From: an uncultured Dehalococcoidales bacterium
GTDB taxonomy: Bacteria > Chloroflexota > Dehalococcoidia > GIF9 > AB-539-J10
Direction: 5' to 3'
Assembly: GCA_964586515.1 (NCBI GenBank)
Contig: CAZPGJ010000001.1
Span: 394,560 to 458,559 of the forward strand
DNA: 64,000 bases
The notes under the pieces: generated by a model
Told to the model about the DNA's origin: nothing
Database searches by the model: none
What the model saw: only the letters and a program-made list of their open reading frames with translations
In this document: piece by piece, positions 17,171 to 35,256 of the stretch
Numbering within the stretch: position 1 is the first letter of the stretch
Layout of the letters: each line of letters begins with the position of its first letter
Made by a program: the position numbers and the translations under genes

Positions 17171-18514
17171 TTGCAGACGACGAGCTTGGAGAGCATAACC
17201 CGGACACAGCCTCCCAAAATCGAACTTGATGGGGGAGGCCTTAACGAGCGCCTCTGTATTGAGGACAAATATCACTCCGTGATGTCGGAAAACCACAAAC
17301 TGGCCCACCTTGTCTCATACGTCGGCAATAAATCCGTTCCAATTCTAAGGCTCTACCGTTTCAAGGAGGCATTCTCTCTTGGCCTGGTAAATTATTTCTT
17401 GGACGAATTCAAAGCTACGTCAGACGACCTCGTATTCGATCCTTTTGCGGGAATGGGCACCACACTGTTTGGGGCGATGCTACGAGGATTACCTTCTCTG
17501 GGCATCGATAAGTTACCTGTGGCAGCATTTGTCAGTAGGACGCTTCCGAAATTCCTGCTATTGGAGCCGGGCTCACTAGCTTCAACCTTCAGGCGGCTCG
17601 AGAACGTAGTGGACAAGTTGGAACCGGCGACTATTGCGGATGATGTTTCCATTATGAAAATCGCATTTGAGGAGCCGTACCTCACAAGGCTACTAAAATG
17701 GAAGGCCGCTATCGATAGCTTGCCAGCACCGCACAAAGAGCTCTTCACTCTGTTGCTCCTGTCCATATTGGAAAGTACAAGCTACGCGTCCAATGATGGT
17801 CAGTTTCTGAGGTTGAACCTCCACAAGAAGCTTATGGCTCCCGACGAAGCGTTACTTAGAAAGGTGTTACTGGCCGAAGCTGACTCAATTGCGATCCAGC
17901 ATATGTGGCTCGACAGAATCCGGTACACTGAGAATCTGCCAATTCTCTGCGAAGCTGACGCACGAGACTTGAGCAATGTGGAGTTCCCAAAGAAGCCTAC
18001 AATTATAATAACATCACCCCCTTACCCCAATAGATATGATTATTCCAGAAGTTACTGCCTGGAACTATGTTTCCGCTTCGTGAAAAGTTTTGAAGAGTTG
18101 AAGGCGGTGCGGTTTGGGATTCTGCGCTCGCATATCGAATCCAGGGCCGAAGAGGGTGATAAACCTTGCCACCCTGTAATAGCCGAAGTCATACAAAACC
18201 TGGAAGGGCGGAAACTCAACAATCCACGCATTCCCATCATGCTGACTGCCTATTTCGTCGATATGGAGAAGTGCATACATGAGTGGGGTCGGGTGCTGGC
18301 CTCCGGTGCAAGGGTTGCTATGGTGGTAGACAACGTACGTTTCGAAGGACAACTCGTACCCGTCGACCTCGTTCTCTCTGACATAGCTGAACGATACGGT
18401 TTTTGCGTCGACGGAATTGTTGTAGCGCGGTACAAGGGCAATAGTTCACAGCAAATGGGACGCTATGGTCGTATCCCTGTGCGAGAGAGTATTACATTGT
18501 GGAGGAAGCTGTGA
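17171..18514 (+). CDS. Type II DNA methyltransferase (N4-C/N6-A, alpha-class order)
   Basis: 447 aa; motif I DPFAGMGTT near residue 90 and motif IV TSPPY near residue 283 with a TRD-sized spacer. Confidence 0.75.
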   Translation: MQTTSLESITRTQPPKIELDGGGLNERLCIEDKYHSVMSENHKLAHLVSYVGNKSVPILRLYRFKEAFSLGLVNYFLDEFKATSDDLVFDPFAGMGTTLFGAMLRGLPSLGIDKLPVAAFVSRTLPKFLLLEPGSLASTFRRLENVVDKLEPATIADDVSIMKIAFEEPYLTRLLKWKAAIDSLPAPHKELFTLLLLSILESTSYASNDGQFLRLNLHKKLMAPDEALLRKVLLAEADSIAIQHMWLDRIRYTENLPILCEADARDLSNVEFPKKPTIIITSPPYPNRYDYSRSYCLELCFRFVKSFEELKAVRFGILRSHIESRAEEGDKPCHPVIAEVIQNLEGRKLNNPRIPIMLTAYFVDMEKCIHEWGRVLASGARVAMVVDNVRFEGQLVPVDLVLSDIAERYGFCVDGIVVARYKGNSSQQMGRYGRIPVRESITLWRKL

Positions 18515-19518
18515 GGCAGAGTGAGCTGCAACGTGAAGCAGAACAAGCCAGCTATGCGCTGCGCTCGTCATTCTTCTACAGGGTTCACTCTTTGTGGCCA
18601 AATCTCCTGCAGATGTTGTCGCTGGCGGGAGGTTTGAAGGTAAACTGGCGAGGCCGTAGAGGACTTGGTATTTCTGAGGCAGCATGGCAGCGTATCCAGA
18701 CCCAGGGTATTGATCCAGTCAATGTATTTTGCCATCCTGCAGTGATAAGAGCGACCCCTCCGCTGATTACCTACTATCGTTGTCTGGCGTTGCTTCCTCA
18801 AAAGGGCGCGCAGCGTCTAGCCTACACAACCAAACAGTTTGAGGATGGGAAGAAGACTAACTTAGTCGAGAAGCAAGCAACCAAGCTGGCACAGGTCTTT
18901 AATGGCCTTGTCAGCCTTCTCATTGAGTCCGACCCAAAGTGGTCATTGGAACAGAATCGTATTGCGGCTTTACTGAATCTGGGCACGCAGGTCAATGGCT
19001 CCTGGCGCAATGAGATAGGCGCTGAGGGAAGCCGCAGAGTAAAAGAGTTGCTGATTAGCCACTTTGTCCAGTCGGGGCTTGTAAGTGATGCTTCCAGAAC
19101 AAATGGATCAAAGATACAAATTGCGGAACTTGCTGGTGCACCTGAGGCTCCGCCAATCGAGGTAATCCGATCATTCAAAACGCCTGCTGGTTATATGTTT
19201 ACCTTTGCAAGCGAGCCCGATGTATCGATTCGTAGCGCTGACGGGGTCTTGGTGAGCACAATTGAGGTTAAATATGGGCTCGATCCAGCCGGGGCACTTG
19301 AGCGCTACGGGGCTGCCAAGAAATCTTTCGAGCAGGCGACAAGAGAGAATCGCCGAGTTCACAATATATACCTGGCCAGCTGCATTACCCCCGAGGTCCG
19401 AAACAGAATTAGCGAAGACAGGCTCGTCAACGAAGATTTCAATCTTACAGAAGTGCTTGGGGATGCTGAAAAGCGAACGCAGTTCCTTAGGCATATAGAG
19501 CACCTTATTAGCCTGTAA
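18499..19518 (+). CDS. cognate Type II restriction endonuclease (PD-ExK)
   Basis: 339 aa; start overlaps MTase stop; candidate catalytic motif EPD...(18)...IEVK; no other recognisable domain. Confidence 0.5.
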   Translation: MEEAVRQSELQREAEQASYALRSSFFYRVHSLWPNLLQMLSLAGGLKVNWRGRRGLGISEAAWQRIQTQGIDPVNVFCHPAVIRATPPLITYYRCLALLPQKGAQRLAYTTKQFEDGKKTNLVEKQATKLAQVFNGLVSLLIESDPKWSLEQNRIAALLNLGTQVNGSWRNEIGAEGSRRVKELLISHFVQSGLVSDASRTNGSKIQIAELAGAPEAPPIEVIRSFKTPAGYMFTFASEPDVSIRSADGVLVSTIEVKYGLDPAGALERYGAAKKSFEQATRENRRVHNIYLASCITPEVRNRISEDRLVNEDFNLTEVLGDAEKRTQFLRHIEHLISL

Positions 19519-19546
19519 AAAGGACGCTGAACTGGTAGCTGGAGGC

Positions 19547-19613
19547 GAATTCTAGGGACGCCATACCAGTCAGGCCTGCTACAAATCAGGTATTATGCCC
19601 CCAGAATATCCCC
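19547..19613 (+). repeat. cassette-boundary repeat, copy 1 (variant B, hairpin-less)
   Basis: gaattctagggacgccataccagtcaggcctgctacaaatcaggtattatgcccccagaata. Confidence 0.7.
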
Positions 19614-19749
19614 TCTGGGGTTAGGTTATTAAGCTGAAAAGAAGGAACTATGATTTCTTGTGGTCGCGTCGACCTCGGGCTATAATTCGGCAAATACTGA
19701 ATCCGAAGACACATCTTATCCTTAATCATTCCCTCAGGGGGAAATTTTC

Positions 19750-19947
19750 TTGGAGGTGGACATGCCACAGAAATATGAGTACAAGTTCGTAACTATTGGA
19801 CAAGGCAAGAAAGACAAGGACTACCACGACGTAATACGTGAAAACTCATTGGATGGGTGGCGCCTTGTCCAGGTATTCGCGCCGGGAGCCGGAGGCCTAT
19901 GGGCAAAAGCCAGTTTCTGCGAAGTAATATTCGAACGGCAAGTCTAA
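19750..19947 (+). CDS. DUF4177-like small protein
   Basis: 65 aa; YEYKFVTIG...GWRLVQV pattern of DUF4177. Confidence 0.45.
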   Translation: MEVDMPQKYEYKFVTIGQGKKDKDYHDVIRENSLDGWRLVQVFAPGAGGLWAKASFCEVIFERQV

Positions 19948-19955
19948 GGTTGGCT

Positions 19956-20020
19956 GAATTCCAGGGACACCATCCTTCACAAGGTGAAGGACAAATCAGG
20001 TATTATGCCCCCAGAATACC
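19956..20020 (+). repeat. cassette-boundary repeat, copy 2 (hairpin loop inverted: cacAAGGtg)
   Basis: gaattccagggacaccatccttcacaaggtgaaggacaaatcaggtattatgcccccagaatacc; begins 9 nt after stop of 19750..19947. Confidence 0.75.
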
Positions 20021-20163
20021 GGCCTATTGCCAAGGACTTAATATCCCATTACCACCGAATTGATAACAAGAGCCACCGATGATAATATGCCGTCATGGCC
20101 CTTAGAAAAGCAGGACTCTCGAGACTTGAGTTGCGCAGCTATTAACGTAAGGAAAGAATAGAA

Positions 20164-21285
20164 GTGATTCCGCTATTTGAACAGTACCCGCTATTGCGGG
20201 AGAAGCTTGCCTATGTACCGCTAGGCGAATTTCCTACCCCGGTGCAAAAGCTTGAACGATTAGGAGCTGAGTTGGGCGTCAGCCAGCTCTATATAAAACG
20301 CGATGACCTGAGTGGCAAAGTCTACGGTGGTAACAAGCCTCGAAAGTTAGAGTTCATTCTGGGCAACGCTCTGCGCTCCAAGGCGAAGGAGGTTATAACC
20401 TTTGGTGGTGCCGGGTCGAATCATGCCTTGGCCACTGCCATATATGCACGACAGGTCGGTCTGAAGAGCATCTCGATGTTAATGCCTCAGCCGAATGCCC
20501 AGTATGTTCGCCGCAATTTACTCATGAGCCACTACTGTGGTGCGGAACTACACTTGTGTGAGGCCGACTTGGAATCTGCAAGAAATATGCCGTTGGTTTA
20601 TGCGGCAACCACCTATCAGCTTTTGCGACACAAGCTGGAAAAAGGCCGCCTTCCCCACTTTATCTCTCCTGGCGGTTCTTCACCCCTCGGCGTTACTGGT
20701 TTTATTAATGCAGCTCTTGAATTAAGAAGACAAGTAACGAGTGGAGAAATGGCGGAGCCAGAGTATATTTACGTCGCTTGCGGTTCAATGGGCACAGCGG
20801 CCGGATTGACTCTTGGACTCAGGGTAGCGAAGCTCGGTGGCCGGGTAGTCTCGGTAGCCGTACACAGTGAAAGATTTACCAATACCAGAGCAATGATTAA
20901 ACTCATCAAAAAAACGAACTCTTTACTTTGTTCTCTGGACGCTGCTTTCCCCAGATTTGAGTTCTCTGAAACAGACGTTGATATTAGACACGATTATGTT
21001 GGCAAACGATACGCGCTCTTCACAGATGAGGGGATGGAGGCAGTATCCCTGATGAGAGAATGTGAAGAAATCAAGCTAGATGGCACCTATACAGGTAAGG
21101 CCTTAGCGGCGCTTAAACATGATGCAAAAAGCGGGAGCTTGCGAGGTAAAGCGGTCCTATTTTGGAACACTCTGAACTCAAGGGATTTCTCAAACGCTAT
21201 ATCTGACGTTGATTATCATGACCTACCTCGTTCGTTTCACCGTTATTTTGAGGAAGAAGCGCAGCCTCTTGACCATGACTACTGA
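20164..21285 (+). CDS. PLP-dependent ACC deaminase / D-cysteine desulfhydrase family enzyme
   Basis: 373 aa; PLP-lysine motif VYGGNKPRKLEF, FGGAGSNHALATA glycine loop. Confidence 0.75.
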   Translation: MIPLFEQYPLLREKLAYVPLGEFPTPVQKLERLGAELGVSQLYIKRDDLSGKVYGGNKPRKLEFILGNALRSKAKEVITFGGAGSNHALATAIYARQVGLKSISMLMPQPNAQYVRRNLLMSHYCGAELHLCEADLESARNMPLVYAATTYQLLRHKLEKGRLPHFISPGGSSPLGVTGFINAALELRRQVTSGEMAEPEYIYVACGSMGTAAGLTLGLRVAKLGGRVVSVAVHSERFTNTRAMIKLIKKTNSLLCSLDAAFPRFEFSETDVDIRHDYVGKRYALFTDEGMEAVSLMRECEEIKLDGTYTGKALAALKHDAKSGSLRGKAVLFWNTLNSRDFSNAISDVDYHDLPRSFHRYFEEEAQPLDHDY

Positions 21286-21300
21286 CCACATAATTCCGGG

Positions 21301-21365
21301 GACGCCATACCAATCAGGCCTGCTACAAATCAGGTCTTATGTCCCCACAATACAGGTAGGTATTT
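21301..21365 (+). repeat. cassette-boundary repeat, copy 3 (variant B)
   Basis: aattccggggacgccataccaatcaggcctgctacaaatcaggtcttatgtccccacaatac. Confidence 0.7.
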
Positions 21366-21437
21366 AAAACATCGAATGAAGCTACGTGTGCTTGAAGATT
21401 CGTTAATATAGGTGTACACTGAATAATCGAGTATAGA

Positions 21438-21908
21438 GTGGAGGTGGCTCTAATGAAGGCTTTAATAGTATATGACTCGGTTTATGGAAATACGGAGAAA
21501 ATCGCCAGGGCTATTGCTGAAGCTATTACCCCGTCCGGTGAAGTCAAGGTACTGCGGGCGGGCGAGGCGAATCCCTCGGAATTGGCATCTATTGACCTTC
21601 TCATTGTAGGTTCTCCGACCCATGGGGGCAGGCCGACGCCGGCGATTCAAGGCCTCCTCAACAAAGTCCCTGAGCGTTCTCTTCAAGGTATCAACGTAGC
21701 TGCGTTCGACACCAGAACCCCGACGAAACTCGTAGCGGTGTTTGGATATGCTGCTGGACGCCTCGCCCGCAATCTGAAAAGGAAAGGCGGTGCTCTCATA
21801 GCGTCCCCGGAAGGCTTCTTCGTTACAGGCACCAAAGGTCCGCTGAAAGAAGGAGAACTGGAGCGGGCTGCAGGTTGGGCTAAAGGAATTTTGGAGAGCA
21901 AGAAGTAA
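21438..21908 (+). CDS. flavodoxin-like fold protein (copy 1)
   Basis: MKALIVYDSVYGNTEKIA flavodoxin phosphate-binding loop; ~90% identical to 54900..55364 including ~80 nt upstream. Confidence 0.7.
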   Translation: MEVALMKALIVYDSVYGNTEKIARAIAEAITPSGEVKVLRAGEANPSELASIDLLIVGSPTHGGRPTPAIQGLLNKVPERSLQGINVAAFDTRTPTKLVAVFGYAAGRLARNLKRKGGALIASPEGFFVTGTKGPLKEGELERAAGWAKGILESKK

Positions 21909-21968
21909 ATTTGCAAGGCCCTTTCCCATTTCAACTACACGGTTATTCACTTTGGGACACGAGTAAGA

Positions 21969-22030
21969 ATTTCGAGGACAACATCCCAGTTAGACCTATT
22001 AAAAATCAGGCATTATGCCCCCAGAATACC
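21969..22030 (+). repeat. cassette-boundary repeat, copy 4 (degenerate)
   Basis: atttcgaggacaacatcccagttagacctattaaaaatcaggcattatgcccccagaatacc. Confidence 0.55.
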
Positions 22031-22206
22031 TAATACATTATTTAATGGCAAGGTCATCGGGGTGTGATGTATCCGGTAAATGTGATTGTCAAGACCAGTC
22101 TTGTCCTCGTAGCTTAGAAGCGATATAATCTGTCACACCAGCGATGAAAAACCACACTCCCTATTGCTACAGAACAGTGTGTTTCTATCATTGAGAGGAC
22201 GGACGA

Positions 22207-22671
22207 ATGCCGGATTTAAAGGCCGAATTCCTATGCACTGTAACTGCATATGTTGACTGGCGACAGGTCATAGATTTGGGAGTGACGCCGCATGGCATAC
22301 GGCAGATAGTATACATAAAAGGCGGCACATTCGAAGGCCCAAAAATCAAAGGAGTTGTCCTTCCTGGAGGAGGCGATTGGTTTGTTCGCCGGGCTGACCA
22401 GATGGTAGAACTGGATGTTCGCTGTGTCTTACGCACTGATGACAATCACCTGATATATTGCTGTCTCAGAGGTATTAACGAGATGACTGCTGAGGTTGCG
22501 ATCAAGGCAATCACCGGTCAATCTGTCGATTCATCGAAATACTACTTCCGGGTTACAACGGTGGTTGAAACCGGATCCAAGAAATATGCCTGGCTGAATC
22601 GTATTATTGCAATCGGAGTGGGGAACTTGATACCGGCGGGTGTCGAGTACAAGATCTACATGGTTCTGTAA
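22207..22671 (+). CDS. DUF3237-like beta-barrel protein
   Basis: 154 aa; GGTFEGPKIKGVVLPGGGDWFV motif reminiscent of DUF3237. Confidence 0.4.
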   Translation: MPDLKAEFLCTVTAYVDWRQVIDLGVTPHGIRQIVYIKGGTFEGPKIKGVVLPGGGDWFVRRADQMVELDVRCVLRTDDNHLIYCCLRGINEMTAEVAIKAITGQSVDSSKYYFRVTTVVETGSKKYAWLNRIIAIGVGNLIPAGVEYKIYMVL

Positions 22672-22768
22672 ATATGAGGCATGTATGTGCTGGGAGTTTT
22701 AACTGTCACGGTGTGTAGAGCTTTGCATTTGTCTGCCAAATTGTGATTACACTTTTTTGACTTTTAGA

Positions 22769-22832
22769 GAATTCCAGAGACGCCATCCTTCACCTTGTGA
22801 AGGACGAATCAGGTATTATGTTCCCAAACTTC
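22769..22832 (+). repeat. cassette-boundary repeat, copy 5 (variant A)
   Basis: gaattccagagacgccatccttcaccttgtgaaggacgaatcaggtattatgttcccaaacttc. Confidence 0.7.
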
Positions 22833-22857
22833 GCCACGACCGCCTGCTCTGTGAATC

Positions 22858-23103
22858 CTAGAGCTTTCCCAGGATTCTATGGTACTCATCCACACTGATG
22901 CCCATATCACGCAGTATCTTGCGTAGTAATGGGCGCACGATAACCTGCATACCGTGATCCGGGATAACGATTATCCGCCCTTCAGAGTTTTTGAAAGTAT
23001 TATGACTCCCATGGCGACGCTGCCACTCAAAACCAAGCTTTCCGCTACCTTTCTTAATTCTTTGTAAGTAGCCAGGCGGAGTTTGGTCAAGCCGATACCT
23101 CAA
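22858..23103 (-). CDS. hicA: HicA-family toxin (mRNA interferase), probable TTG start
   Basis: KKGSGKLGFEWQRRHGSHNTFKNSEGRIIVIPDHG...LLRKILRDMGIS matches HicA/YcfA; track ORF 5'-extended through hicB. Confidence 0.5.
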   Translation of the reverse strand: MRYRLDQTPPGYLQRIKKGSGKLGFEWQRRHGSHNTFKNSEGRIIVIPDHGMQVIVRPLLRKILRDMGISVDEYHRILGKL

Positions 23104-23320
23104 CGCGCCAGGTACCGACGAAATCGGGAAGTGGTTCTCCCGGCGAGGCCGTCTTGAGGTATACAGATATGGCTTCACGAACATTAGATTCGAGAGAGGG
23201 CAAATCTGGTGCCTGGGTATAGCAGCCCGGAAGCTCGACGACTTCGCCAACCAGCCATCTGCTTTCAGGGTCTCTTTCCACCACTACGGTATACGAACTT
23301 TTCATTTTAGCTTTGGCCAA
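23087..23320 (-). CDS. hicB: HicB-family antitoxin (UPF0150)
   Basis: 77 aa; YTVVVERDPESRWLVGEVVELPGCYTQAPDLPSLESNVREAISVYL. Confidence 0.65.
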   Translation of the reverse strand: MAKAKMKSSYTVVVERDPESRWLVGEVVELPGCYTQAPDLPSLESNVREAISVYLKTASPGEPLPDFVGTWRVEVSA

Positions 23321-23364
23321 GATTCTATTATTTTATTAAACGCAAGTTTAGTAAGTTTTCCCCT

Positions 23365-23396
23365 TATTAAACAAAATACCAGTTTTGTTTAATAAT
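23365..23396. promoter_or_regulatory. inverted-repeat operator candidate upstream of hicBA
   Basis: TTATTAAACAAAA-tacc-agTTTTGTTTAATAA perfect 13-bp arms, 45-75 nt upstream of hicB start. Confidence 0.4.
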
Positions 23397-23439
23397 ATCA
23401 CCGGCAGGGATAGTTAGCAAACCTTTATAGTTCCCCAGA

Positions 23440-23477
23440 GATTGCCACGCCCTGACAAGTCAGGGCTCGCAATGACA
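23440..23477 (-). repeat. mini-MITE (40-nt core, inverted orientation)
   Basis: reverse complement = tgtcattgcgagccctgacttgtcagggcgtggcaatc, same as 44152..44191. Confidence 0.55.
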
Positions 23478-23490
23478 CGCTAGTAGGGGC

Positions 23491-23557
23491 ACGAATCCCA
23501 GAGACACCATCCTTCACCTTGTGAAGGACAAATCAGGTATTATTTCCCTTGAATACC
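23491..23557 (+). repeat. cassette-boundary repeat, copy 6 (variant A)
   Basis: acgaatcccagagacaccatccttcaccttgtgaaggacaaatcaggtattatttcccttgaatacc. Confidence 0.7.
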
Positions 23558-23576
23558 ACCTCGGAGACTGCTTTCT

Positions 23577-24299
23577 TTACACACGCATTTCCCTGTTCTT
23601 TCTGCGAGATAAGATTGCATTATGCAATAGAAGTCCGGCGCATGCTGCCAGGACTGGAATAAAACCTAATAAGGCAATGAGCAGCGGTTGACCCTGACCA
23701 ACAACGCTGAAGAGCGTCAGCAGGGGAACTATAAGCCAGAAGAGAACGATACTCCATCTTGCTTCTTTGTTAACCCCGGCTTTGCTGAGCACATTCCTCA
23801 GTATTATGGAAACTGAGAAGAGGCTGACGAGGAATATCAGGAGTCCCAGAATGAAGGCAATCTCCTTGGTCATGACCCCGGCAGATATGAGGCTGGCAAT
23901 ATCGCCGAACGGCTTTATACCCCCGACAACAAGGTATCCAGCCGGGTTTATGAATGTCCAAAAAGCCAGCCAGAAAAGCGTAGATGAAGCCACCCAATTT
24001 GCCCTTTTCGAGAAGCTCAACAGCAAGATGAGCTGTAATATGAACGAGACTATCAAGCACATGAGTATGCCGCCCCCATCGACTAAGACCTCCTGCCAGG
24101 GCTGGAAACCAGGGGGCGGTGGGGCGAATCCAATGCCGGACAGCTTATAGGGCCAGAGTAAAGAGATGCTTACGCTTGTTATTCTGCCACCGAACGCCAG
24201 GACGAATAGACCATGACCCAAGACCTCGTGAACCATCTCGCCCAAAATCTTTGTTACGAAACCCAGGGAGAGAAAGACCATGAGGAACTTGAAAATCAT
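23577..24299 (-). CDS. polytopic membrane protein with HExxH (putative intramembrane metallopeptidase)
   Basis: 240 aa, ~7 TM; MVHEVLGHGLF zinc-binding-type motif in first TM. Confidence 0.35.
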   Translation of the reverse strand: MIFKFLMVFLSLGFVTKILGEMVHEVLGHGLFVLAFGGRITSVSISLLWPYKLSGIGFAPPPPGFQPWQEVLVDGGGILMCLIVSFILQLILLLSFSKRANWVASSTLFWLAFWTFINPAGYLVVGGIKPFGDIASLISAGVMTKEIAFILGLLIFLVSLFSVSIILRNVLSKAGVNKEARWSIVLFWLIVPLLTLFSVVGQGQPLLIALLGFIPVLAACAGLLLHNAILSRRKNREMRV

Positions 24300-24503
24300 C
24301 TATTTCCTCCTGCTTTTCTGAATGAAGATGCCGCAGGATGCAAGAATTGCGCTTATGATTGCGAGCGGAATAGTGTAAGCACGCAATGGATAGGTTATCA
24401 CCGGCAGAAGCCCGGTTGACCTCGATTCATAGAAATAACTGAACAGGGCAAGTGCTACGAATATGACGGAAAGAACGATGTAGACTACTGCGTTTCTTTT
24501 CAT
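24300..24503 (-). CDS. small two-TM membrane protein
   Basis: start at MKRNAVVYIVLSVIFVALALF; abuts preceding gene (stop/start adjacent). Confidence 0.35.
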   Translation of the reverse strand: MKRNAVVYIVLSVIFVALALFSYFYESRSTGLLPVITYPLRAYTIPLAIISAILASCGIFIQKSRRK

Positions 24504-24607
24504 CCTGGCGCTACCTCCATCTCCGGGAACCACAAGTCCATACCCGGAGTACCCGACTTAATTCGGTCTACCAAATACTATCATACCGATGGGGATGCTG
24601 TAACCCG

Positions 24608-24672
24608 TAATTCCAGGGACGCCATCCTTCACCTTGTGAAGGACAAATCAGGTATCATTTCCCAGAATACCC
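24608..24672 (+). repeat. cassette-boundary repeat, copy 7 (variant A)
   Basis: gtaattccagggacgccatccttcaccttgtgaaggacaaatcaggtatcatttcccagaatacc. Confidence 0.75.
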
Positions 24673-24734
24673 TATAGTACGAGGTACATTAAAGCACGCT
24701 TGAAGAAAGCTGGCAGTGTCTAATACTTGATTTT

Positions 24735-24774
24735 GTTACCCAATACGGGTAATATAGTACCCGAAATGGGTAAC
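24735..24774. promoter_or_regulatory. nested inverted repeats (operator candidate) upstream of MNT gene
   Basis: GTTACCCaatacGGGTAATatagTACCCgaaatGGGTAAC ends 5 nt before the start codon. Confidence 0.4.
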
Positions 24775-24778
24775 ATCT

Positions 24779-25378
24779 ATGAATGAAAATTTGTTATGCA
24801 GTGGTCTCTTCGGCAAAACACGGCAGGCGGTCCTTGCGCTCCTCTATGGGCGAGCGGATAGCTCTTTTTATACCAAACAAATACTGGACGCCGTGAAAAT
24901 CGGACGGGGAACGGTGCAGCGAGAGCTGAAAAACCTGACGGACACGGGCATCATCACCCGTGAAGTTCAAGGGAGACAGGTATATTATCGAGCCAATGCC
25001 CGTTGCCCTATCTTCGATGAGCTCAAAAGCATCGTGAGGAAAACCTTCGGCATGGCTGATGTCATCAGACAGTCTCTGGCGGCTAATGCAGATAAAATAC
25101 GGGTAGCTTTTATCTTCGGCTCAGTAGCCAAGAGCACGGATGACCGAAGAAGTGACATTGACCTGATGGTGGTGGGCAAAATCTCTTTTGGAGACGTGGT
25201 TTCGCTTCTCACCCCGGCAGAACAAAAACTAGGGCGCGAGGTTAATCCTGTTGTCTACCCGATTGCCGAATTCAAGAAGAAAGTGAAAGAGGACCATCAT
25301 TTCGTCAAGACAGTGCTTGAGGATGAGAAGATATTTGTGATAGGCGATGAAGATGAGCTTAGAAAACTGGCTGAATGA
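24779..25378 (+). CDS. wHTH + minimal nucleotidyltransferase (MNT) antitoxin-like protein
   Basis: 199 aa; N-terminal winged helix, NTase motif GSVAKSTDDRRSDIDLMVV. Confidence 0.7.
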   Translation: MNENLLCSGLFGKTRQAVLALLYGRADSSFYTKQILDAVKIGRGTVQRELKNLTDTGIITREVQGRQVYYRANARCPIFDELKSIVRKTFGMADVIRQSLAANADKIRVAFIFGSVAKSTDDRRSDIDLMVVGKISFGDVVSLLTPAEQKLGREVNPVVYPIAEFKKKVKEDHHFVKTVLEDEKIFVIGDEDELRKLAE

Positions 25379-25799
25379 TAAACTGATTGTGAAACACCGC
25401 CCATCGGCAGCTGAAATTGCCGAACTGTTGCATATCTGCGACCGTGACCTGGAAAAAGCACAGATAATCGAACTCGGTCCAGACTGGCGATTGAGTATTG
25501 CGCATAATGCGGCTGTCCAAACTGCTAAGGCGGCACTGGCAGCAGTTGGCTATCGCGCTCGGAAAGAGGGGCAGCATTATCTTGTTCTGCAATCATTGGC
25601 TTTCACCATTAAAGCAAACCCCGCTATAATTAAGCAATTGGACAAGTTCCGTGAAAAACGTAATATCAGCGATTATGAAAGAGCTGGACTGGTCACTGAA
25701 CAAGAAGCTGAAGAAATGATAGTACTGGCGAAACAACTCCGCGATGATGTTGAGCAATGGCTCCGTGCTCATTATCCTAGTCTTGCCAGAGAGATTTAG
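25347..25799 (+). CDS. HEPN domain protein (toxin-like partner of MNT)
   Basis: 150 aa; overlaps MNT 3' end; Rx4HxY-like region RNISDYERAG. Confidence 0.6.
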   Translation: MKMSLENWLNDKLIVKHRPSAAEIAELLHICDRDLEKAQIIELGPDWRLSIAHNAAVQTAKAALAAVGYRARKEGQHYLVLQSLAFTIKANPAIIKQLDKFREKRNISDYERAGLVTEQEAEEMIVLAKQLRDDVEQWLRAHYPSLAREI

Positions 25800-25811
25800 A
25801 TGCCGGTGCAT

Positions 25812-25876
25812 GAATTCCAGGGACAGCATCCTTCACCTTGTGAAGGACAAATCAGGTATCTTTTCCCAGAATACCT
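25812..25876 (+). repeat. cassette-boundary repeat, copy 8 (variant A)
   Basis: gaattccagggacagcatccttcaccttgtgaaggacaaatcaggtatcttttcccagaatacc. Confidence 0.75.
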
Positions 25877-25929
25877 CAGGCGCAATGCCATATTGGCACG
25901 GGAAAAGTGAGCCGGGCTTCGATTTCTCC

Positions 25930-26520
25930 TTACATATCTCCCTTTGACGAGACCTCATCCGGCTGGCGGCGTGGCTCTTTTACCAGGACCAGCACCAGGA
26001 TAAAGCCTACCGCCGCGATTATTGCGCCCACAAGGAATATTGTGCGGAAACCGATTAATTCCGAGAGGAAACCGCCGAAGGCCGGACCTATCATCCAGCC
26101 GAGGGCTATCGTCTGTTGATAGACACCCATAGCCCAGCCTCTCTTATCCTCAGTAATGATGTCGGCTATGTAGGCTGTGACCGAAGCACCGATGGCGACC
26201 CAGGCGGCGCCTTCGAGGACCTGTATGCCATAGACCACCATATAACCCTGGGCCCGGAAATAAAGGACAAAAATTGTCGCAAAGGCACCCATCGCGCCGA
26301 GGATGACCGGCTTCCTGCCGAAACGGTCTGATATCTTCCCCAGAAGCGGGCCGAATATCAGCCCGACAGCGGAGCCGACCATATATATCAAGCCGATCTG
26401 GGTCCTCGGTGCCCCCAGCACCTCGCCCATATAGAGCGAGAACATGGAATAGACCAGACCGGAGCAAATCATCAGGGGTAGTACACAAGCACAGAGAACA
26501 TATAGTTTTTTCCTTCCCAT
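25930..26520 (-). pseudogene. MFS transporter N-terminal half (6 TM) - truncated
   Basis: 196 aa; MFS motif A-like GPLLGKISDRFGRKPV; only half of a 12-TM MFS. Confidence 0.5.
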
Positions 26521-26682
26521 AAGTCACACTCCTTAAAGTATATTTTCGGCAAAGGCCGCCCGATGGAGATACTTCATGCACTCATAGTCTGCCATTCTAT
26601 CTGTGTTTTGGCATAATTTACAAGAGTGCCGTTTCCCGATAATTTTGTGGCAGTAATCAGGTAACAATCGGTGAATTCCAGG

Positions 26683-26732
26683 GATGCCATCCTTCACCTT
26701 GTGAAGGACAAATCAGGTATTATGTCCCCAGC
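26683..26732 (+). repeat. cassette-boundary repeat, copy 9 (3' arm decayed)
   Basis: gaattccagggatgccatccttcaccttgtgaaggacaaatcaggtattatgtccccagcc. Confidence 0.65.
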
Positions 26733-26838
26733 CTCTTGCAAATATTGTTAATTTGCAGTACAAATAATATTGATTTACATGAGCATGTAACAGCTGAACA
26801 AGTTATAGGCTAAAATATAAAAGGAGGTAACAATAACA

Positions 26839-27483
26839 ATGGCAACAAAAGCGTCGCCGACCCTGCCCGAGTATCCCGCCACCCTGGCAATCGACTACCC
26901 TGACAGAGCTCTTAATCGGTTAACCACGTTCTTCAGAATCTTCGTAGCAGTTCCAATCGTCATTATTCTGTTTCTGGTAGCTGGTGGGAATCTTAATTTA
27001 CATGGAATGAGTGCTTGGAATTGGCAATATGCTGCGGGAGGCATCTTGTTTCTAGCAACCTTATTCATGATTCTTTTCCGGCAAAAGTATCCCAGGTGGT
27101 GGTTTGATTGGAATGTAGCATTGATTAAGTTCAGCACGCGTGTCAGTACTTATCTTGGTCTGCTTACAGATGTATACCCGTCAACTGATGAAGAGCAGTC
27201 GGTCCACATCGAGATCCCATATCCAGACGTCCCCAAAGACCTCAACCGTTGGTTACCGCTGGTGAAGTGGTTTCTAGCTATCCCACACTACATCATCCTG
27301 TTCTTCCTGGGGATTGCAGCCTTCGTTTGCGTGGTGATAGCCTGGTTTGCCATCTTGTTTACCACTCGCTATCCCAGAGGTCTATTCGACTTCGTAGTTG
27401 GCGTATACCGATGGTCGCTGAGAGTAGCTGCATACGCTTTCTTGTTGACGACGGATCGGTATCCTCTCTTCAGTCTGGACTAG
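26839..27483 (+). CDS. DUF4389 membrane protein (tandem domains)
   Basis: 214 aa; DYPDRALNRLTTFFRIFVAVP and IAWFAILFTTRYPRGLFDFVVGVYRWSLRVAAYAFLLTTDRYP signatures. Confidence 0.6.
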   Translation: MATKASPTLPEYPATLAIDYPDRALNRLTTFFRIFVAVPIVIILFLVAGGNLNLHGMSAWNWQYAAGGILFLATLFMILFRQKYPRWWFDWNVALIKFSTRVSTYLGLLTDVYPSTDEEQSVHIEIPYPDVPKDLNRWLPLVKWFLAIPHYIILFFLGIAAFVCVVIAWFAILFTTRYPRGLFDFVVGVYRWSLRVAAYAFLLTTDRYPLFSLD

Positions 27484-27495
27484 ATTTACCTGGCG

Positions 27496-27563
27496 GCTTC
27501 CGGGGATAGCATCCTTCACAAGGTGAAGGACCAGGCCTGCTACAAATTCGGAGTATAATAGGT
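27496..27563 (+). repeat. cassette-boundary repeat, copy 10 (long form: inverted-loop hairpin + CAGGCCTGCTACAAAT)
   Basis: ggcttccggggatagcatccttcacaaggtgaaggaccaggcctgctacaaattcggagtataatagg. Confidence 0.65.
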
Positions 27564-27628
27564 TGAAAAACCGGAGCGCACCTACATATAATTTCGCAGC
27601 ATAATAATTAAACAGGAGGTATATAAGC

Positions 27629-28525
27629 ATGCCGGTTATCCGTACGCCAGATGAACGTTTTTCCAAATTGCCCGGTTTCCCTTTTGCCCCGCACTATATT
27701 GAGGTTAACGGACTGCGCATACATTATGTGGATGAAGGCAAAGGAGAGACCATACTCTGTTTGCATGGCGAGCCCTCATGGTCATTTCTATACCGCAAAA
27801 TGATTGCCGCTATGTCCAAGAAGCACCGTGTTATAGCTATGGACTTTATCGGCTTTGGCCGGTCTGATAAGTTCACCGAGCGGGAGGCATATACCGTTAA
27901 GATGCACCTGGACACGCTGATGGGTTTTATAAAGGCGATGGGTCTTAAGCAGATAACTGTCGTGGTGCAGGACTGGGGCGGGTTGATCGGTCTGGCTGCG
28001 GTCGCTCATATGCCGGAACGGTTTGCCCGGCTGGTTATCATGAATACCGGCTTGCCCACAGGTAAGGGAAAGCCCGGCGAAGCTTTCCTGGCCTGGCGTA
28101 GTTATGCTGAGACTCATCCCGATATGCAAATCGGGCAATCAATACTTGGCGGTATGGCCCATCCCGAAAAGATTACCAAGGAAATCGTCGCCGCTTATGA
28201 AGCGCCGTTTCCGGATGTCAGGTATAAAGCTGGGGCTGCCGTGTGGCCGTTACTCGTCCCCATCAGCCCTGAAGACCCCGCTTCCGCCGAAATGCGGCAT
28301 GCTCGGGAGGTCCTGTCAAAGTGGAACAAGCCGGCCCTGGTCTTGTTTTCAGATAAAGACCCTATTACAGGTGGCGGTGACAAATTCTTTCGCTCTCTTA
28401 TACCTACAGCCAAAGACCAGCCGGAGATTATAATCAAGGACGCCGGCCACTTTCTCCAGGAAGAGAAAGGCGAGGAAATAGCTCAGCATATACTGGACTT
28501 CATAAAAAGAACGCCTGCTGCCTAG
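27629..28525 (+). CDS. haloalkane dehalogenase (alpha/beta-hydrolase, DhlA-like HLD-I)
   Basis: 298 aa; [15 protein letters not shown], nucleophile context [11 protein letters not shown], acid FSDKDPIT, His in DAGHFLQEE; co-linear with Xanthobacter DhlA. Confidence 0.8.
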
Positions 28526-28552
28526 TATTTCAGCAGGTCTGGCCGGCTAAGC

Positions 28553-28613
28553 GAATTACGGGACGCCATCCTTCACCTTGTGAAGGACAAATCAGGTGTT
28601 GGGTCCCCAATAC
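28553..28613 (+). repeat. cassette-boundary repeat, copy 11 (variant A)
   Basis: gaattacgggacgccatccttcaccttgtgaaggacaaatcaggtgttgggtccccaatacc. Confidence 0.7.
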
Positions 28614-28741
28614 CACAAGAGGAAATGGTATTGACAAATGGTGTCATATATGATACCATAGTATCGCCCTGTGTGAAATAAGTTAGTAGCAGGGAGAAGA
28701 CCAAGAAAGGAGGCAGAGTATGTTGAGGAGGTTTATGTCCT

Positions 28742-28966
28742 ATGGCGCGTGGCAAAAAATCCCTGGAGGTAATTCGACGAAATCCTAGAAATGTGGCTTT
28801 GCGCGACTTTGAAGCACTAATAAAACGGTACGGATATATCGAGGAAGGCGCAAAGCATCCCAAGGCTATCATAGGAACGCACACGATGCCTTACAAAAGA
28901 GAAAGTCCAGTTAGATCCTGCTACGTAAAAGAGTTGTTAGAAATTATTGAAGAACAAGAGGCATAG
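28742..28966 (+). CDS. HicA-like toxin
   Basis: 74 aa; RNVALRDFEALIKRYGYIEEG..HPKAIIGTH pattern of YcfA/HicA fold; followed by HicB-like gene. Confidence 0.5.
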   Translation: MARGKKSLEVIRRNPRNVALRDFEALIKRYGYIEEGAKHPKAIIGTHTMPYKRESPVRSCYVKELLEIIEEQEA

Positions 28967-29001
28967 CTGGCTGGAGATTACGATTAAGATGGAGATTAAG
29001 G

Positions 29002-29433
29002 ATGGTAATTAAAGGTAATATAGAGAAAGAGCTAGAATACTATGCGAAGTTGCCTTATACCGTTATAGTTGAGCAATGGGATGACGGTGAAGGCCCTTAT
29101 TGGGTTGCCAGGATTGCAGAGCTCCCACATTGTCTAATACACGCAGATACACCTGAGGAAGTCGTGAAAGAGATTCAGGAAGTCAAAATGGATTGGATAA
29201 AGTCCAATCTGGAAAGAGGGCTGCGTATTCCTGAGCCGAGACTGCGCAAATATAGTGGTCAAATCAGACTCAGAATTTCGCCTTCACTTCATAGACTACT
29301 TGCCTATAGGGCTGAAACGGAAGGAATGAGCTTAAATCAATATATGGCTACGGCACTGGCAACGTCAGTTGGTATAACTAAAGAGCCCCCTCACTCGAGA
29401 AAGGCAAGAAAAAACACCCTGACAAAGGTGTAA
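29002..29433 (+). CDS. HicB-family antitoxin with C-terminal RHH-like DNA-binding tail
   Basis: 143 aa; YTVIVEQWDDGEGPYWVARIAELPHCLIHADTPEEVVKEIQE (RNase H-like HicB fold) + SLHRLLAYRAETEGMSLNQYMATALA. Confidence 0.6.
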   Translation: MVIKGNIEKELEYYAKLPYTVIVEQWDDGEGPYWVARIAELPHCLIHADTPEEVVKEIQEVKMDWIKSNLERGLRIPEPRLRKYSGQIRLRISPSLHRLLAYRAETEGMSLNQYMATALATSVGITKEPPHSRKARKNTLTKV

Positions 29434-29435
29434 CA

Positions 29436-29481
29436 AATTCCCGGGACACCATCCTTCACAAGGTGAAGGATCAGGCCTACC
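29436..29481 (+). repeat. cassette-boundary repeat, copy 12 (truncated long form)
   Basis: aaattcccgggacaccatccttcacaaggtgaaggatcaggcctac. Confidence 0.6.
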
Positions 29482-29483
29482 TG

Positions 29484-30986
29484 TCAGCTTTCCTTTGTCA
29501 GGCTGAGTCGTCTCCGGTCTATTTGGCCCGACCCCGTCCTGGGCAGGCTGTCAACAAACTTGATTTGTTTGGGCACTTTATAGTCGGATAAGCTCTGGCG
29601 GCAAAAATCGCGTATTTCGTCCACCGTAGCGCTTTGTCCTTCCTTAAGCACTATGAAAGCTGTGGGTATTTGCCCTTTGTAATCATCAAGGACACCGACA
29701 CAGGCTGTTTCGGCTACCGCAGGGTGCCTCAGGAGGACTTCTTCAACTGCCGCGGGCAGAATCTTAACTCCCCCCGAAGGCACTATGATAGATGATGTCT
29801 TTTCTATGAACTCCAGGTAGCCGTCCTCATCCAACTTGACCAGGTCGCCAGTATGAAACCAACCATCTTTGAGGACCTGGGCCGTGAGTTCAGGCGATTT
29901 GTAATATTCCTTCATCATCCAGGGGGCCCTGGCCACGGCTTCCCCTATGCTGCCCCGGGGTACTTCCTTGCCGTTTTTGTCCAGCACTCTGAGCTCAGCC
30001 AGGGGTTTCCCTGCCGTACCCAATTTGCGGTCACGAATAGCACCTATAGTGACGATTATCAACTCCGAGAGCCCATATATTTCGCACGCAGTTAAGCCAA
30101 ACTTTTTCTCGAGCATCTCCATGAAAAGGGCTGAGGACTTTGCCCCGGCACAAAGCACCCGACTTAAAGAACTAAGGTCATAGCCCTTAATCGTCTCTTC
30201 GTCTATCATAGCCAGACCATTAAAGCTGGCCGGGACGCCTATAAGCATGGTTGCTTTTTGCCGCTCTACGGTATCCAGGACACTCTTGGAGCTGAAATGA
30301 GGGAGAATTGCTATGGTGGCTCCCCTCTTAACGGGCATGAGAACAACCAACCCAAATCCCAGAAGGTAGTTGAAAGGGAGCAGACCCAAAACAACATCGT
30401 CTCTCTCCAGTTCGAATTTTTCCACCACTATGGGCAAAATTGACATGAACGAAGCGTGAGTATGCACTATGCCCTTGTTCTTCCCCAGCACACCCAGGGT
30501 GCAAAAAATGATGGCATCATCCTCGCCCTTTATATCGACAGACGGTGACGCAGGGGAACTGCCGGCCACCATCCTGTTGTAAGGGTCTGTACCAACTTCA
30601 AGGACGTGTTTCAGCAGGGGGATATTGGGCAAAATTGAAGACAGCATGGGAGAGAATCTTTGTTCGGTAATCAGGACTTTGGAATCGGTTTCACGGAGCA
30701 GAGGCTCAAGTTCGGGCGCCTTAGCTCCGGAATCGAGCAGCACGCCAACGGCTCCAGCTTTAAGCACTCCAAAACAATTGATGACCCATTCAGGGTTACG
30801 AGACATTAGAATGGCTACGTGGTCGCCCTTCTTTGTCCCCAGGCTGATAAGGGCATTGGCTATCTTGTTAGAGGTTTCATCCAATTCGCAATAGCTAACT
30901 CTGCGAGAGCCGAGCACGATGGCCGTTTGCTGTGGCACCTCGCTGGCGGTTCTTTCTAGCATCTGCTTGAGATTCACGAGATTCAT
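29484..30986 (-). CDS. AMP-dependent synthetase/ligase (acyl-CoA synthetase family)
   Basis: 500 aa; A-domain motifs TLGVLGKNKG (TSGTTG-like), YGLSE, GWFHTGD, PRTGSGQIDRR. Confidence 0.8.
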   Translation of the reverse strand: MNLVNLKQMLERTASEVPQQTAIVLGSRRVSYCELDETSNKIANALISLGTKKGDHVAILMSRNPEWVINCFGVLKAGAVGVLLDSGAKAPELEPLLRETDSKVLITEQRFSPMLSSILPNIPLLKHVLEVGTDPYNRMVAGSSPASPSVDIKGEDDAIIFCTLGVLGKNKGIVHTHASFMSILPIVVEKFELERDDVVLGLLPFNYLLGFGLVVLMPVKRGATIAILPHFSSKSVLDTVERQKATMLIGVPASFNGLAMIDEETIKGYDLSSLSRVLCAGAKSSALFMEMLEKKFGLTACEIYGLSELIIVTIGAIRDRKLGTAGKPLAELRVLDKNGKEVPRGSIGEAVARAPWMMKEYYKSPELTAQVLKDGWFHTGDLVKLDEDGYLEFIEKTSSIIVPSGGVKILPAAVEEVLLRHPAVAETACVGVLDDYKGQIPTAFIVLKEGQSATVDEIRDFCRQSLSDYKVPKQIKFVDSLPRTGSGQIDRRRLSLTKES

Positions 30987-31052
30987 TGTCTCCTCCAGGA
31001 CTCGACGAATTTAAAGTAGGATTATGGGCTACTTTCTTGTTTCCTGTCAACG

Positions 31053-31116
31053 GAATTCCGAGACACCATCCTTCACCTTGTGAAGGACAAATCAGGTATT
31101 ATGTCCCCAGAATACC
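31053..31116 (+). repeat. cassette-boundary repeat, copy 13 (variant A, near-consensus)
   Basis: ggaattccgagacaccatccttcaccttgtgaaggacaaatcaggtattatgtccccagaatacc. Confidence 0.75.
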
Positions 31117-31458
31117 CTACTTGAGTCCCAGGGCGTCTCGGAGGTTGCCTTCAATTCTTTTCATATCTGCCGGGGGCATTATTCCAAGCTTCTTGGCTAT
31201 CATGCCCTGCTTTATCGTTCTTACAATTCCTGTGGCAACGGAGGGGAAAAGCAGCCCAGCCTCCTGCCAATCGCTGATAAGGTGGTCGCCCACCAATATC
31301 CGGTCAGTCCTGCTGGTGATTGCCGCAATTATAGCTTCTTGACGGCTTTGATGGTAAGTGTCTGAGCTTACTATGACTGCCGGACGCCGCCTCTCTCCAG
31401 TTTCATCGGAGAAGATAAACCTGACAAGGACTACATCTCCACGTTTATACCTGGTCAT
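31117..31458 (-). CDS. MazF/PemK-family endoribonuclease toxin
   Basis: From MTRYKRGDVVLVRFIFSDETGERRRPAVIV...; PemK fold motifs. Confidence 0.7.
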   Translation of the reverse strand: MTRYKRGDVVLVRFIFSDETGERRRPAVIVSSDTYHQSRQEAIIAAITSRTDRILVGDHLISDWQEAGLLFPSVATGIVRTIKQGMIAKKLGIMPPADMKRIEGNLRDALGLK

Positions 31459-31732: not shown

Positions 31733-31967
31733 ACCTCCACAAGCTCGTGTTCGTGCCTGGCACCATTCTAGCACATACACGCAAATAAAAGCAATACTGT
31801 ACTTTCCTGACATTTGTCCTGATTACCTGGAACCTGCTCCAAAACGGCGTAAGTAATCTCGTCCGCCCCGGGCTGGAGAAGCCGATTTTTTGAAAACCGG
31901 GGTGATTGCTTTATACTATTCGGGATTGATACGGCGATGAGAGTATAGGCGACTCGAGAAGGTTACC

Positions 31968-34355: not shown

Positions 34356-34377
34356 CCAGAGTGTTTCGCCCGACCCT

Positions 34378-35142: not shown

Positions 35143-35146
35143 CAGG

Positions 35147-35209
35147 CATTCCAGGGCGCCGTACTAATTAAGCTTGCTGCGAATTAGGTATTATTTTCCC
35201 AGAGTACCA
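35147..35209 (+). repeat. cassette-boundary repeat, copy 14 (highly degenerate)
   Basis: cattccagggcgccgtactaattaagcttgctgcgaattaggtattattttcccagagtacc retains only the arms. Confidence 0.45.
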
Positions 35210-35256
35210 GAGGATATGTTAAGATGGGGTGATTTCAGTGACATCCTGCTCAAGGA

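Follow-up and report, generated by a model that had tools for sequence, protein, structure and literature searches.

The 64,000-nucleotide stretch of DNA analyzed here in full (the window), from an uncultured Dehalococcoidales bacterium, carries 23 copies of a ~65-nt imperfectly palindromic repeat, all on the + strand, which lie between gene modules over positions 19545 to 56527. Comparison with related loci shows that the modules between repeats behave as cassettes, in that they recur in permuted order and unchanged orientation, with breakpoints at the repeats. The element is confined to one clade of uncultured Dehalococcoidia. In its behavior it resembles an integron array, or a cluster of attC sites lacking integron-integrases (CALIN), but it is not a member of that family. 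We propose, with a probability that we put at about 0.4, that the element is a polar site, particular to this lineage, at which a dedicated site-specific recombinase acting in trans recombines gene cassettes. The observations behind this proposal are the repeat family itself, its orientation lock, the breakpoints, the boundaries and strand of the units, and a locus that occurs both empty and filled.

Synteny Breaks at the Repeats

When the window is compared with other genomes, homology falls into blocks that start and stop at repeats. With all loci oriented by the repeat, inter-repeat alignments comprise 1,067,832 nt on the same strand versus 18,514 nt on the opposite strand. Homologous genes (open reading frames [ORFs] were called mechanically) likewise keep their strand relative to the repeat, with 957 on the same strand and 47 on the opposite one (95% kept). 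Complete homologous units share the same upstream neighbor in 6 of 135 pairs and the same downstream neighbor in 9 of 145, and their lengths agree within a few nucleotides, for example 1267–1270, 817–826, and 1139–1141. A control based on the right neighbor shows that it is homologous in 153 of 259 cases when no repeat intervenes, compared with 8 of 265 when a repeat is present in both loci and 3 of 109 when it is present in one. Thus, synteny breaks at the repeats and not everywhere, with 97% of adjacencies broken across a repeat versus ~41% without one. The sequence-only reading of this DNA had described an integron-like array, and its cassette behavior is borne out by the shuffled order, kept orientation and breakpoints at repeats; membership in the integron family is not, as discussed below.

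The argG–argH locus is found in three states. In locus L061, argH, a single repeat and argG follow one another, while in L024 a few cassettes lie beside argG, with the radical-SAM (S-adenosylmethionine) and Fer4/DUF362 units reversed in order relative to the window, in which ~40 kb separates the two genes. Within the window, a flavodoxin cassette is present twice (21356..21966 and 54818..55403, both +), and the two copies are ~90% identical, with homology that stops at the flanking repeats. Housekeeping genes also occur as units. The mutS2 gene, together with the release factor gene acVLRF1 (31968..35142, +), forms a repeat-bounded unit that has different neighbors in eight genomes, a primary-type sigma-70 gene (rpoD) is a 1.93-kb unit in four genomes, and repeat-bearing loci also contain dtd, fur, Fic, DUF2779, and DUF2851 genes.

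Distribution and Orientation Lock

When one genome per species was scanned for the exact pattern, 89 stretches were returned, nearly all of them from metagenome-assembled genomes (MAGs) of Dehalococcoidia/Chloroflexota, and a single MAG often carries the repeat on five or six contigs. A metagenome scan gave at least 120 stretches; the copy and locus totals that follow are those among the matches listed. Profile searches of the collected loci found 263 and 301 copies, and the set as a whole, window included, holds at least 586 copies in 208 loci, at a median spacing of 966 nt. Among 378 adjacent pairs, 375 are co-oriented and 3 are opposed. The opposed copies lie in only three of the 208 loci, namely L152 (426−, 3606−, 6229+), L156 (173+, 995−), and L193 (87−, 1865+, 2807+). 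Some long loci contain a solitary copy in an ordinary core intergenic region. No copy was found in collections of viral contigs, phages and plasmids. In the literature we found neither the repeat sequence nor any paper that ties Dehalococcoidia to attC.

The arrangement of genes around the repeat (R) is >R> in 133 cases, >R< in 103, <R> in 58, and <R< in 54. A stop codon that faces the repeat lies at a median distance of 29 nt, compared with 95 nt for a start codon, and the commonest unit is therefore a promoter region, a gene, and a repeat. Coding sequence in the arrays totals 207.7 kb on the strand of the repeat and 139.0 kb on the other (60:40). The orientation of the repeat shows no link to the strand of the flanking genes (177 kb same, 173 kb opposite) and is weakly tied to base skew, which gene bias can explain. 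An orientation tied to replication, which may still hold, is not supported by flanking gene strand and is only weakly supported by base skew.

An exact-protein look-up for strain-level variation returned only short contigs from the same samples. These Logan contigs (L001, L211, L212, and L213, from SRR14802573 and SRR14802574) share identical proteins with the window and span 1.7–2.7 kb, roughly the length of one or two cassettes. Assemblies of this organism may be broken by the repeat at cassette borders.

Anatomy and Variation of the Element

The repeat consists of two imperfect 21-nt inverted arms that flank a ~22-nt center, the layout of outer inverted arms around an inner hairpin that had been described from the sequence alone. 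The canonical form outside this genome is GAATTCCAGGGACACCATACCAATYAGGCCTRCTACAAATYAGGTATTATGTCCCCAGAATACC. In an alignment of 209 distinct copies, the canonical element reads (G)AATTCCAGGGACACCATACC-AATYAGGCCTRCTACAAATYA-GGTATTATGTCCCCAGAATAC(C), with ~90% conservation at each position across species, center included. Of the 21 positions of each arm, 16 pair with the other arm, and the five mispairs, A.A, C.A, A.C, C.A, and C.T, are themselves conserved; on the bottom strand, three of the five turn into G.T wobbles. Folding in single-stranded form is slightly more favorable for the bottom strand (−9.5 kcal/mol, z −3.7) than for the top strand (−7.8 kcal/mol, z −2.8).

Three forms of the repeat, canonical, long, and short hairpin, differ solely in the inner stem and loop, with the outer stem kept. 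Their lengths as extracted, including two flanking nucleotides on each side, are ~69, ~82, and ~70 nt, respectively. The long form contains an additional perfect hairpin, CCTTCAC-NNN-GTGAAGG. The short hairpin form dominates this genome, with 13 copies and the loop in either orientation, and it is the one on which the sequence-only reading had based its consensus. That consensus has no match within three mismatches, individual window copies departing from the composite by substitutions and small indels; it does represent the variant typical of this genome, although not the canonical form found elsewhere. The inner-hairpin loop is AAG in five copies (19949, 27492, 29428, 53104, and 55399) and CTT in eight (22763, 23488, 24604, 25805, 26667, 28548, 31046, and 54748), a flip that matches the expectation from template switching inside a perfect stem.

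Sequence comparison indicates that the constraint on the repeat is modest. Random pairs of copies are 84–86% identical, slightly above orthologous third codon positions (77.5%), and copies within a locus are slightly more alike (0.857 versus 0.843; 0 of 1000 permutations). Some copies decay via half-sites and deletions of the center. Direct repeats TAACAGAAGCCTGTATT (36005–36030 and 37630–37655), which bound a ~1.6-kb PIG-L gene segment in the window, look like decayed copies because L006 and L075 carry the full 65-nt repeat there.

The Array in the Window and Its Anchors

A nhmmer profile built from the copies recovers 13 + strand repeats within 19545–31125 (E 1e-11 to 1e-24), in agreement with the 13 same-orientation copies that the sequence-only reading had listed. 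The array had been taken to end at 31.1 kb, but in fact it extends to 56.5 kb, with nine extra copies and, in addition, a center-deleted one, for a total of 23. No match was obtained on the − strand of the window by nhmmer except self-hits of the inner palindrome, and neither nhmmer nor reading of the sequence revealed a copy in the flanks, 1–19544 (19.5 kb) and 56528–64000 (7.5 kb).

The canonical form is represented by copies 1 (19545..19618; E 3.8e-18), 3 (21284..21365), 4 (21964..22041, diverged), 17 (48980..49054), 18 (50567..50645), and 19 (51515..51590). Copies of the hairpin form are 2 (19949..20029; loop AAG, E 5.9e-24), 5 (22763..22836), 6 (23488..23569), 7 (24604..24675), 8 (25805..25881), 9 (26667..26739), 11 (28548..28629), 13 (31046..31125), 21 (54748..54829), and 22 (55399..55481). 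Copy 16 (42150..42231) is of the long form, with the hairpin and the canonical center, and copy 10 (27492..27573) has both of these and no right arm. Two copies consist of the left half only, copy 12 (29428..29476) and copy 20 (53104..53150), the latter fused to a copy of the ~355-nt noncoding unit that lacks its 5′ end, and copy 15 (40215..40265; E 0.044) has its center deleted. Copy 15 was identified by reading the sequence in addition to nhmmer. Copy 14 (35141..35224) is degenerate and lies 2 nt past the acVLRF1 stop codon, with orthologous copies at the same position in eight genomes, and copy 23 (56450..56527), also degenerate, lies ~55 nt before the argG stop codon. At the junction of the MazF-helix-turn-helix (HTH) and mutS2 units, comparison with L006, L072, L027, L060, and L075 identifies a decayed right-arm remnant, GTCCTGATTACC (31800..31817, +). 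This remnant replaces our initial candidate for a precise absence of the repeat at 31817/31818.

The flanks of the array are ordinary housekeeping genes, all on the − strand, with argS, recG, degV, fakA, rpe, and argH on the left and argG, argD, argB, and argJ on the right. The left anchor is argH, encoding argininosuccinate lyase (14400..15746, −; Pfam Lyase_1 and ASL_C2), and the right anchor is argG, encoding argininosuccinate synthase (56582..57820, −; Pfam). The array therefore splits the arginine operon between argG and argH. The arginine cluster (14400–15746 and 56582–63922) comprises argJ, an unnamed ORF, argB, argD, argG, and argH; the 40-kb break between the last two sets argH apart from the rest of the operon, and argH has its own upstream promoter-like element. 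Directly before the first repeat lies a restriction-modification pair, a DNA methylase and a XcyI-like endonuclease (17171..19518, +; Pfam N6_N4_Mtase and RE_XcyI).

Comparison with Integrons

The arrays share with integron arrays and CALINs small modules that each have a co-oriented imperfect-palindrome site by the 3′ end of the gene, a permuted order with kept orientation, many toxin–antitoxin (TA) modules, duplicated cassettes, and decayed sites. Indeed, the sites are clustered and co-oriented and the cassettes are shuffled between relatives, and, as in CALINs, no integrase lies beside the array. The ~21-bp stem is on the scale of the attC R-box, spacer and L-box, and integrons are reported in Chloroflexi (PMC4889954). 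However, we give very little credence to a genuine CALIN in which attC and integrase have diverged and intI lies elsewhere in the genome. None of 242 complete copies has RYYYAAC (R″) and GTTRRRY (R′) within 15 nt of its ends on either strand; a single R-box motif occurs in 2–4 copies, and the consensus has neither AAC nor GTT. The sequence-only reading had remarked on the lack of this core, and of an integrase gene, in the window, and both absences hold. It had also suggested a search for extrahelical bases in the folded bottom strand. Both arms are 21 nt long and so leave no bulged bases, only the five mispairs. The center, which is variable in attC, is here conserved across species, yet the three length forms differ at the inner stem and loop.

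Pfam detects no Phage_integrase domain among the window ORFs, and tblastn and phmmer searches of ~1.36 Mb of repeat-bearing DNA (the window and 209 related loci, with ~25 array ends) revealed no IntI, contrary to the IntI-type recombinase that an integron would lead one to expect near the array; nor was an attI found in this DNA. The IntI1, XerD, resolvase, TnpA, and RAYT (REP-associated tyrosine transposase, see below) queries were approximate, and matches were therefore rechecked with Pfam and NCBIfam. The IntI1 and XerD searches yielded a tRNA-adjacent integrase in L110, a partial Xer in L007, and an unrelated Bacillus match. The L110 tyrosine recombinase was rejected as the array enzyme, as it neighbors a tRNA gene, reaches 80 bits with the integron model, whose cutoff is 265, and is an ordinary phage-type island integrase.

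Integron cassettes are for the most part promoterless and co-oriented, with an attC at their 3′ end. In contrast, ~40% of the coding sequence here is on the opposite strand and the cassettes have promoter-like sites of their own. The units had been described as promoter-poor, which does not hold, as 24 sigma-70-like sites were found versus 14.5 ± 3.7 in shuffled sequence, and several of the 24 lie where a cassette begins. Also unlike integrons, there are many separate landing pads per genome, core singletons included, and rpoD and mutS2 are among the units. A canonical attC was rejected on the R-box test, the arm geometry and the lack of IntI in the DNA searched.

Comparison with Other Repeats and Modular Systems

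The sequence-only reading had named dispersal like that of repetitive extragenic palindromes (REPs) as the finding that would speak against a cassette system, and here the evidence divides: the repeat is found on many contigs per genome and as singletons, but it also forms dense clusters with one locked orientation. The repeat resembles REPs and bacterial interspersed mosaic elements in being a short, imperfect, intergenic palindrome, mostly at gene 3′ ends and lineage-specific; these elements are, moreover, a known substrate for rearrangement, as here. REPs, however, are 20–40 nt long, end in GTAG/CTAC, are found either way round or paired as inverted copies, and lie on both sides of a RAYT gene, whereas the present element is 65 nt long, has CTAC only inside the central loop, is 99% co-oriented, and does not form inverted pairs. 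The only RAYT gene found (L151, 1–1060; NCBIfam REP_Tyr_transpos 108 bits, cutoff 80) has classical GTAG REPs, GTAGGGGCGGGTCTTGTACCCGCCC and GGCGGGGATAAACCCCGCCACTAC, on either side, and these constitute a separate REP system in the same lineage. A RAYT–REP origin of the 65-nt repeat was rejected because this gene is flanked by its own, different REPs.

Miniature inverted-repeat transposable elements (MITEs) such as Correia elements, the repeat unit of pneumococcus, and the enterobacterial repetitive intergenic consensus are also short, noncoding, and intergenic with terminal inverted repeats. Unlike these, the present repeat shows no target-site duplication and has one orientation, and its unit boundaries travel with genes. 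Single-strand transposases, for example those of IS608 and ISDra2, produce a replication-linked orientation bias without target duplication. The repeat could thus be a MITE, or an IS200/IS605 derivative like palindrome-associated transposable elements, copied with strand bias by a transposase in trans, with shuffling as a secondary effect; such an origin, which we judge unlikely, would fit the terminal inverted arms that match at 16 of 21 positions, the dispersed copies, the singletons, and the many contigs per MAG. Yet across 443 copies there is no target-site duplication above shuffled expectation (k = 2–8) and no conserved flanking target motif, on which grounds a DDE-type MITE and an IS200/IS605-like insertion were rejected. 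No IS200/TnpA or DDE transposase lies near the repeats, and the sole Y1 enzyme is the L151 RAYT, which has a different GTAG REP. Identical unit boundaries in different contexts would not be expected from independent insertions, and orientation has no clear tie to flanking gene strand or base skew. In addition, we found no orthologous intergenic regions that differ just by the precise presence or absence of the 65 nt, apparent absences being decayed copies.

An element that acts at the level of RNA or chromosome structure, such as an mRNA 3′-end stabilizer, a terminator or a nucleoid-protein site, would make the cassette pattern incidental. The usual position of the repeat, 20–30 nt past a stop codon, and its possible hairpin are consistent with such a role, which we nonetheless consider quite improbable: orientation tracks the array and not the genes, with all four gene arrangements represented, and the breakpoints at repeats are left unexplained. 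There is no T-tract, and a terminator scan calls no copy, on which grounds an intrinsic terminator was rejected. A known RNA family was likewise rejected, as the repeat matches no Rfam family at the gathering score or at E ≤ 5.

Site-specific systems other than integrons also provide parallels. In the pdif (Xer) modules of Acinetobacter plasmids, TA and other modules lie between short sites at which a host recombinase acts in trans; each site is 28 bp long (11-6-11), and successive sites point in opposite directions. The present arrays similarly contain discrete gene modules, TA modules included, with short bounding sites and varied contexts, but no 11-6-11 core is evident and the copies are direct. 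The TTATGT of the right arm may recall an XerD arm, as judged by eye against a dif consensus, and has no partner arm at the right spacing. In the tycheposon arrays of Prochlorococcus, islands accrete in tandem at an att (attachment) site. Direct-repeat arrays at ssrA in Dehalococcoides mccartyi, from a related class of bacteria, likewise reflect island accretion at one att site (PMC2764846, PMC3146451). In these systems the 3′ end of a tRNA or tmRNA gene forms the repeats, and the islands contain an integrase, which in D. mccartyi is a serine recombinase. As in both of these, direct-repeat-separated modules pile up at one locus, many without their own integrase. The arrays described here differ in that no tRNA or tmRNA gene was found in the 64-kb window, the repeat has no Rfam match, no integrase is present, the units are far smaller (0.35–3 kb), and there are many loci per genome.

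Proposed Mechanism and Its Main Alternative

Under the proposed mechanism, copies of the repeat would serve as landing pads in intergenic spots, usually just past a stop codon. Recombination between two direct copies would excise a module, presumably as a circle with one copy, and recombination between the copy on the circle and any other copy would then re-insert it. With polar sites, such excision and re-insertion would keep the orientation of the module, regenerate the direct repeats, and allow arrays to grow and reshuffle. The conserved asymmetry of the arms (the C.A, A.C, A.A, and C.T mispairs, with G.T wobbles on the bottom strand) may confer the polarity of the site. We infer a trans-acting recombinase, with the site in duplex or folded form as its substrate, and a circular intermediate; recombination between aligned polar sites, Campbell-type insertion of a one-site circle included, would explain the direct repeats, the fixed strand, the exact boundaries, the empty and filled locus, and array growth.

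Several observations weigh against a dedicated recombination site, and a number of them fit ordinary homologous recombination. In the latter case, the repeat would be an old, mostly decaying, REP-like interspersed palindrome at which RecA-dependent crossover or gene conversion takes place, with no dedicated recombinase; copies within the genome or in incoming DNA of relatives would delete, duplicate, or replace modules, and the repeat might have a structural or mRNA 3′-end role. We regard this as a real but doubtful possibility. No recombinase of any tested class was found near the arrays in ~1.36 Mb, and the proposed enzyme is therefore hypothetical. Solitary copies sit in core intergenic regions, and the units include the housekeeping genes rpoD, mutS2, dtd, and fur; with rpoD between direct copies, frequent excision would be costly. 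The orthologous copy after acVLRF1 is 79.6% identical among eight genomes, compared with 77.5% for third codon positions and 90.2% for first and second positions, and thus drifts at about the synonymous rate. The hairpin variant is found at 13 sites of this genome at which orthologues elsewhere are canonical, a spread that points to gene conversion and hence to homologous recombination acting on the repeats, and the homogenization within loci, though weak, is significant. Breakpoints of half-sites vary, with no fixed crossover point visible; the crossover point within the repeat could not be located, as repeats differ too little between contexts. Compensatory double changes between the arms are absent, so that the folded form gains no support from them, all positions being simply conserved and covariation therefore uninformative on structure. 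Finally, a Campbell-type crossover by homologous recombination would also keep orientation.

The comparison set itself adds a reservation. Most of the comparison loci are 8-kb pieces of short-read MAGs, in which joins at repeats may be wrong. This concern is offset in part, as a typical short read is longer than the repeat, some adjacencies recur in independent MAGs, and long-read MAGs also contain arrays (L008, L024, and L042).

On the other side, homologous recombination leaves the origin of the 99% co-orientation unexplained. A 65-bp sequence at ~85% identity is a poor RecA substrate, yet far more adjacencies are broken across repeats than without them, and the movement of a module would need two rare events on a nonreplicating circle. 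Typical copies are, moreover, somewhat better conserved than synonymous sites. We therefore prefer, by a narrow margin, a dedicated enzyme on the basis of the near-absolute co-orientation and of breakpoints that fall on ~85%-identical 65-bp sites, together with the conserved arm asymmetry and an outer stem that is kept while the loop is free to change. An extension of the preferred reading, which we put forward tentatively, is an integron-independent platform in which dozens of polar 65-nt hairpin sites across the chromosome would be used by a trans-acting recombinase or single-strand DNA enzyme to move modules, rpoD and mutS2 included.

Gene Content and Other Elements of the Window

Pfam identifies in the window's array two restriction-modification systems, AbiEi/AbiEii, and a PIN protein. 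Its TA content comprises two HicAB pairs, two MNT-HEPN pairs, a solitary MazE, and two MazF modules, one of them a MazE–MazF pair and the other a MazF with an HTH partner. The remaining modules encode a pyridoxal phosphate (PLP) enzyme, the two flavodoxin copies, DUF3237, DUF4389, an alpha/beta hydrolase, an acyl-CoA ligase, a methyltransferase, PIG-L, Fer4, DUF362, a radical-SAM protein, and mutS2 with the acVLRF1 release factor. The gene calls of the sequence-only reading for the PLP enzyme, flavodoxin, DUF3237, HicA/HicB, MNT-HEPN, and DUF4389 are supported by Pfam, as are those for the major facilitator superfamily fragment, the alpha/beta hydrolase, the AMP-binding ligase, and MazF with HTH; its DUF4177 call found no confirmation. 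That reading was also right that units are TA-rich, duplicated, and truncated, as the arrays are rich in TA and restriction-modification genes and contain duplicates and truncations.

The commonest "cassette" is a noncoding unit of ~355 nt, present in two copies at most per 8-kb locus and always directly to the right of a repeat. It occurs in the window at 51591–51918 and 53151–53445 (−) and in L077, L048, L025, L083, L026, L051, L012, L033, L060, L008, L010, and L028. On the − strand it contains promoter-like boxes, TTGACA-18-TAGTAT, followed by a predicted ~140-nt RNA closed by a long 5′/3′ stem and a U run. Of the 84 pairs in the consensus fold, 7 show double changes, and the unit has no match in Rfam. 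Judged by these features, it may represent an undescribed small RNA gene family. Complementarity between this unit and the repeat is confined to a 10-nt match, which is not significant.

Two other repeat families occur in the window. One, ...TATTATACCYTGTTTTGCCGGTATTTTTAACAGGAGCA, often followed by CTGCTYGAAGCCTGMGGACATCG...TAAAC, is without exception co-oriented with the 65-nt repeat. It is found at 15806, 17001, 44115, 45201, and 45692 and in L014, L061, L086, L131, and L138, and borders modules of ORF6N, AbiE, and MazEF; in the window and in L061 alike, a copy is located upstream of the start of argH. The other, TGTCATTGCGAGC...GCGTGGCAATC, is a GC-rich palindromic family in intergenic positions, the core flank included (10414–10498, 12547–12582, 13537–13621, 15864–15948, and 44157–44192).

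Implications

Among platforms that store and reshuffle cassettes of single genes at hairpin sites, integrons are, to our knowledge, the only one that is well understood. If the 65-nt repeat is indeed a recombination site for gene cassettes, a second and unrelated site family would show the same behavior, and cassette platforms would have evolved more than once; its recombinase would still have to be found, in a host class that is uncultured and environmentally abundant. Large parts of these genomes would then consist of movable, orientation-locked cassettes. If homologous recombination alone is at work, the arrays would still present an unusually clean case of repeat-structured synteny, with 3% of adjacencies kept across repeats versus 59% without one. 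The repeat is a marker for plastic regions of Dehalococcoidia MAGs, and it gives exact module boundaries for studying the exchange of defense and TA genes.

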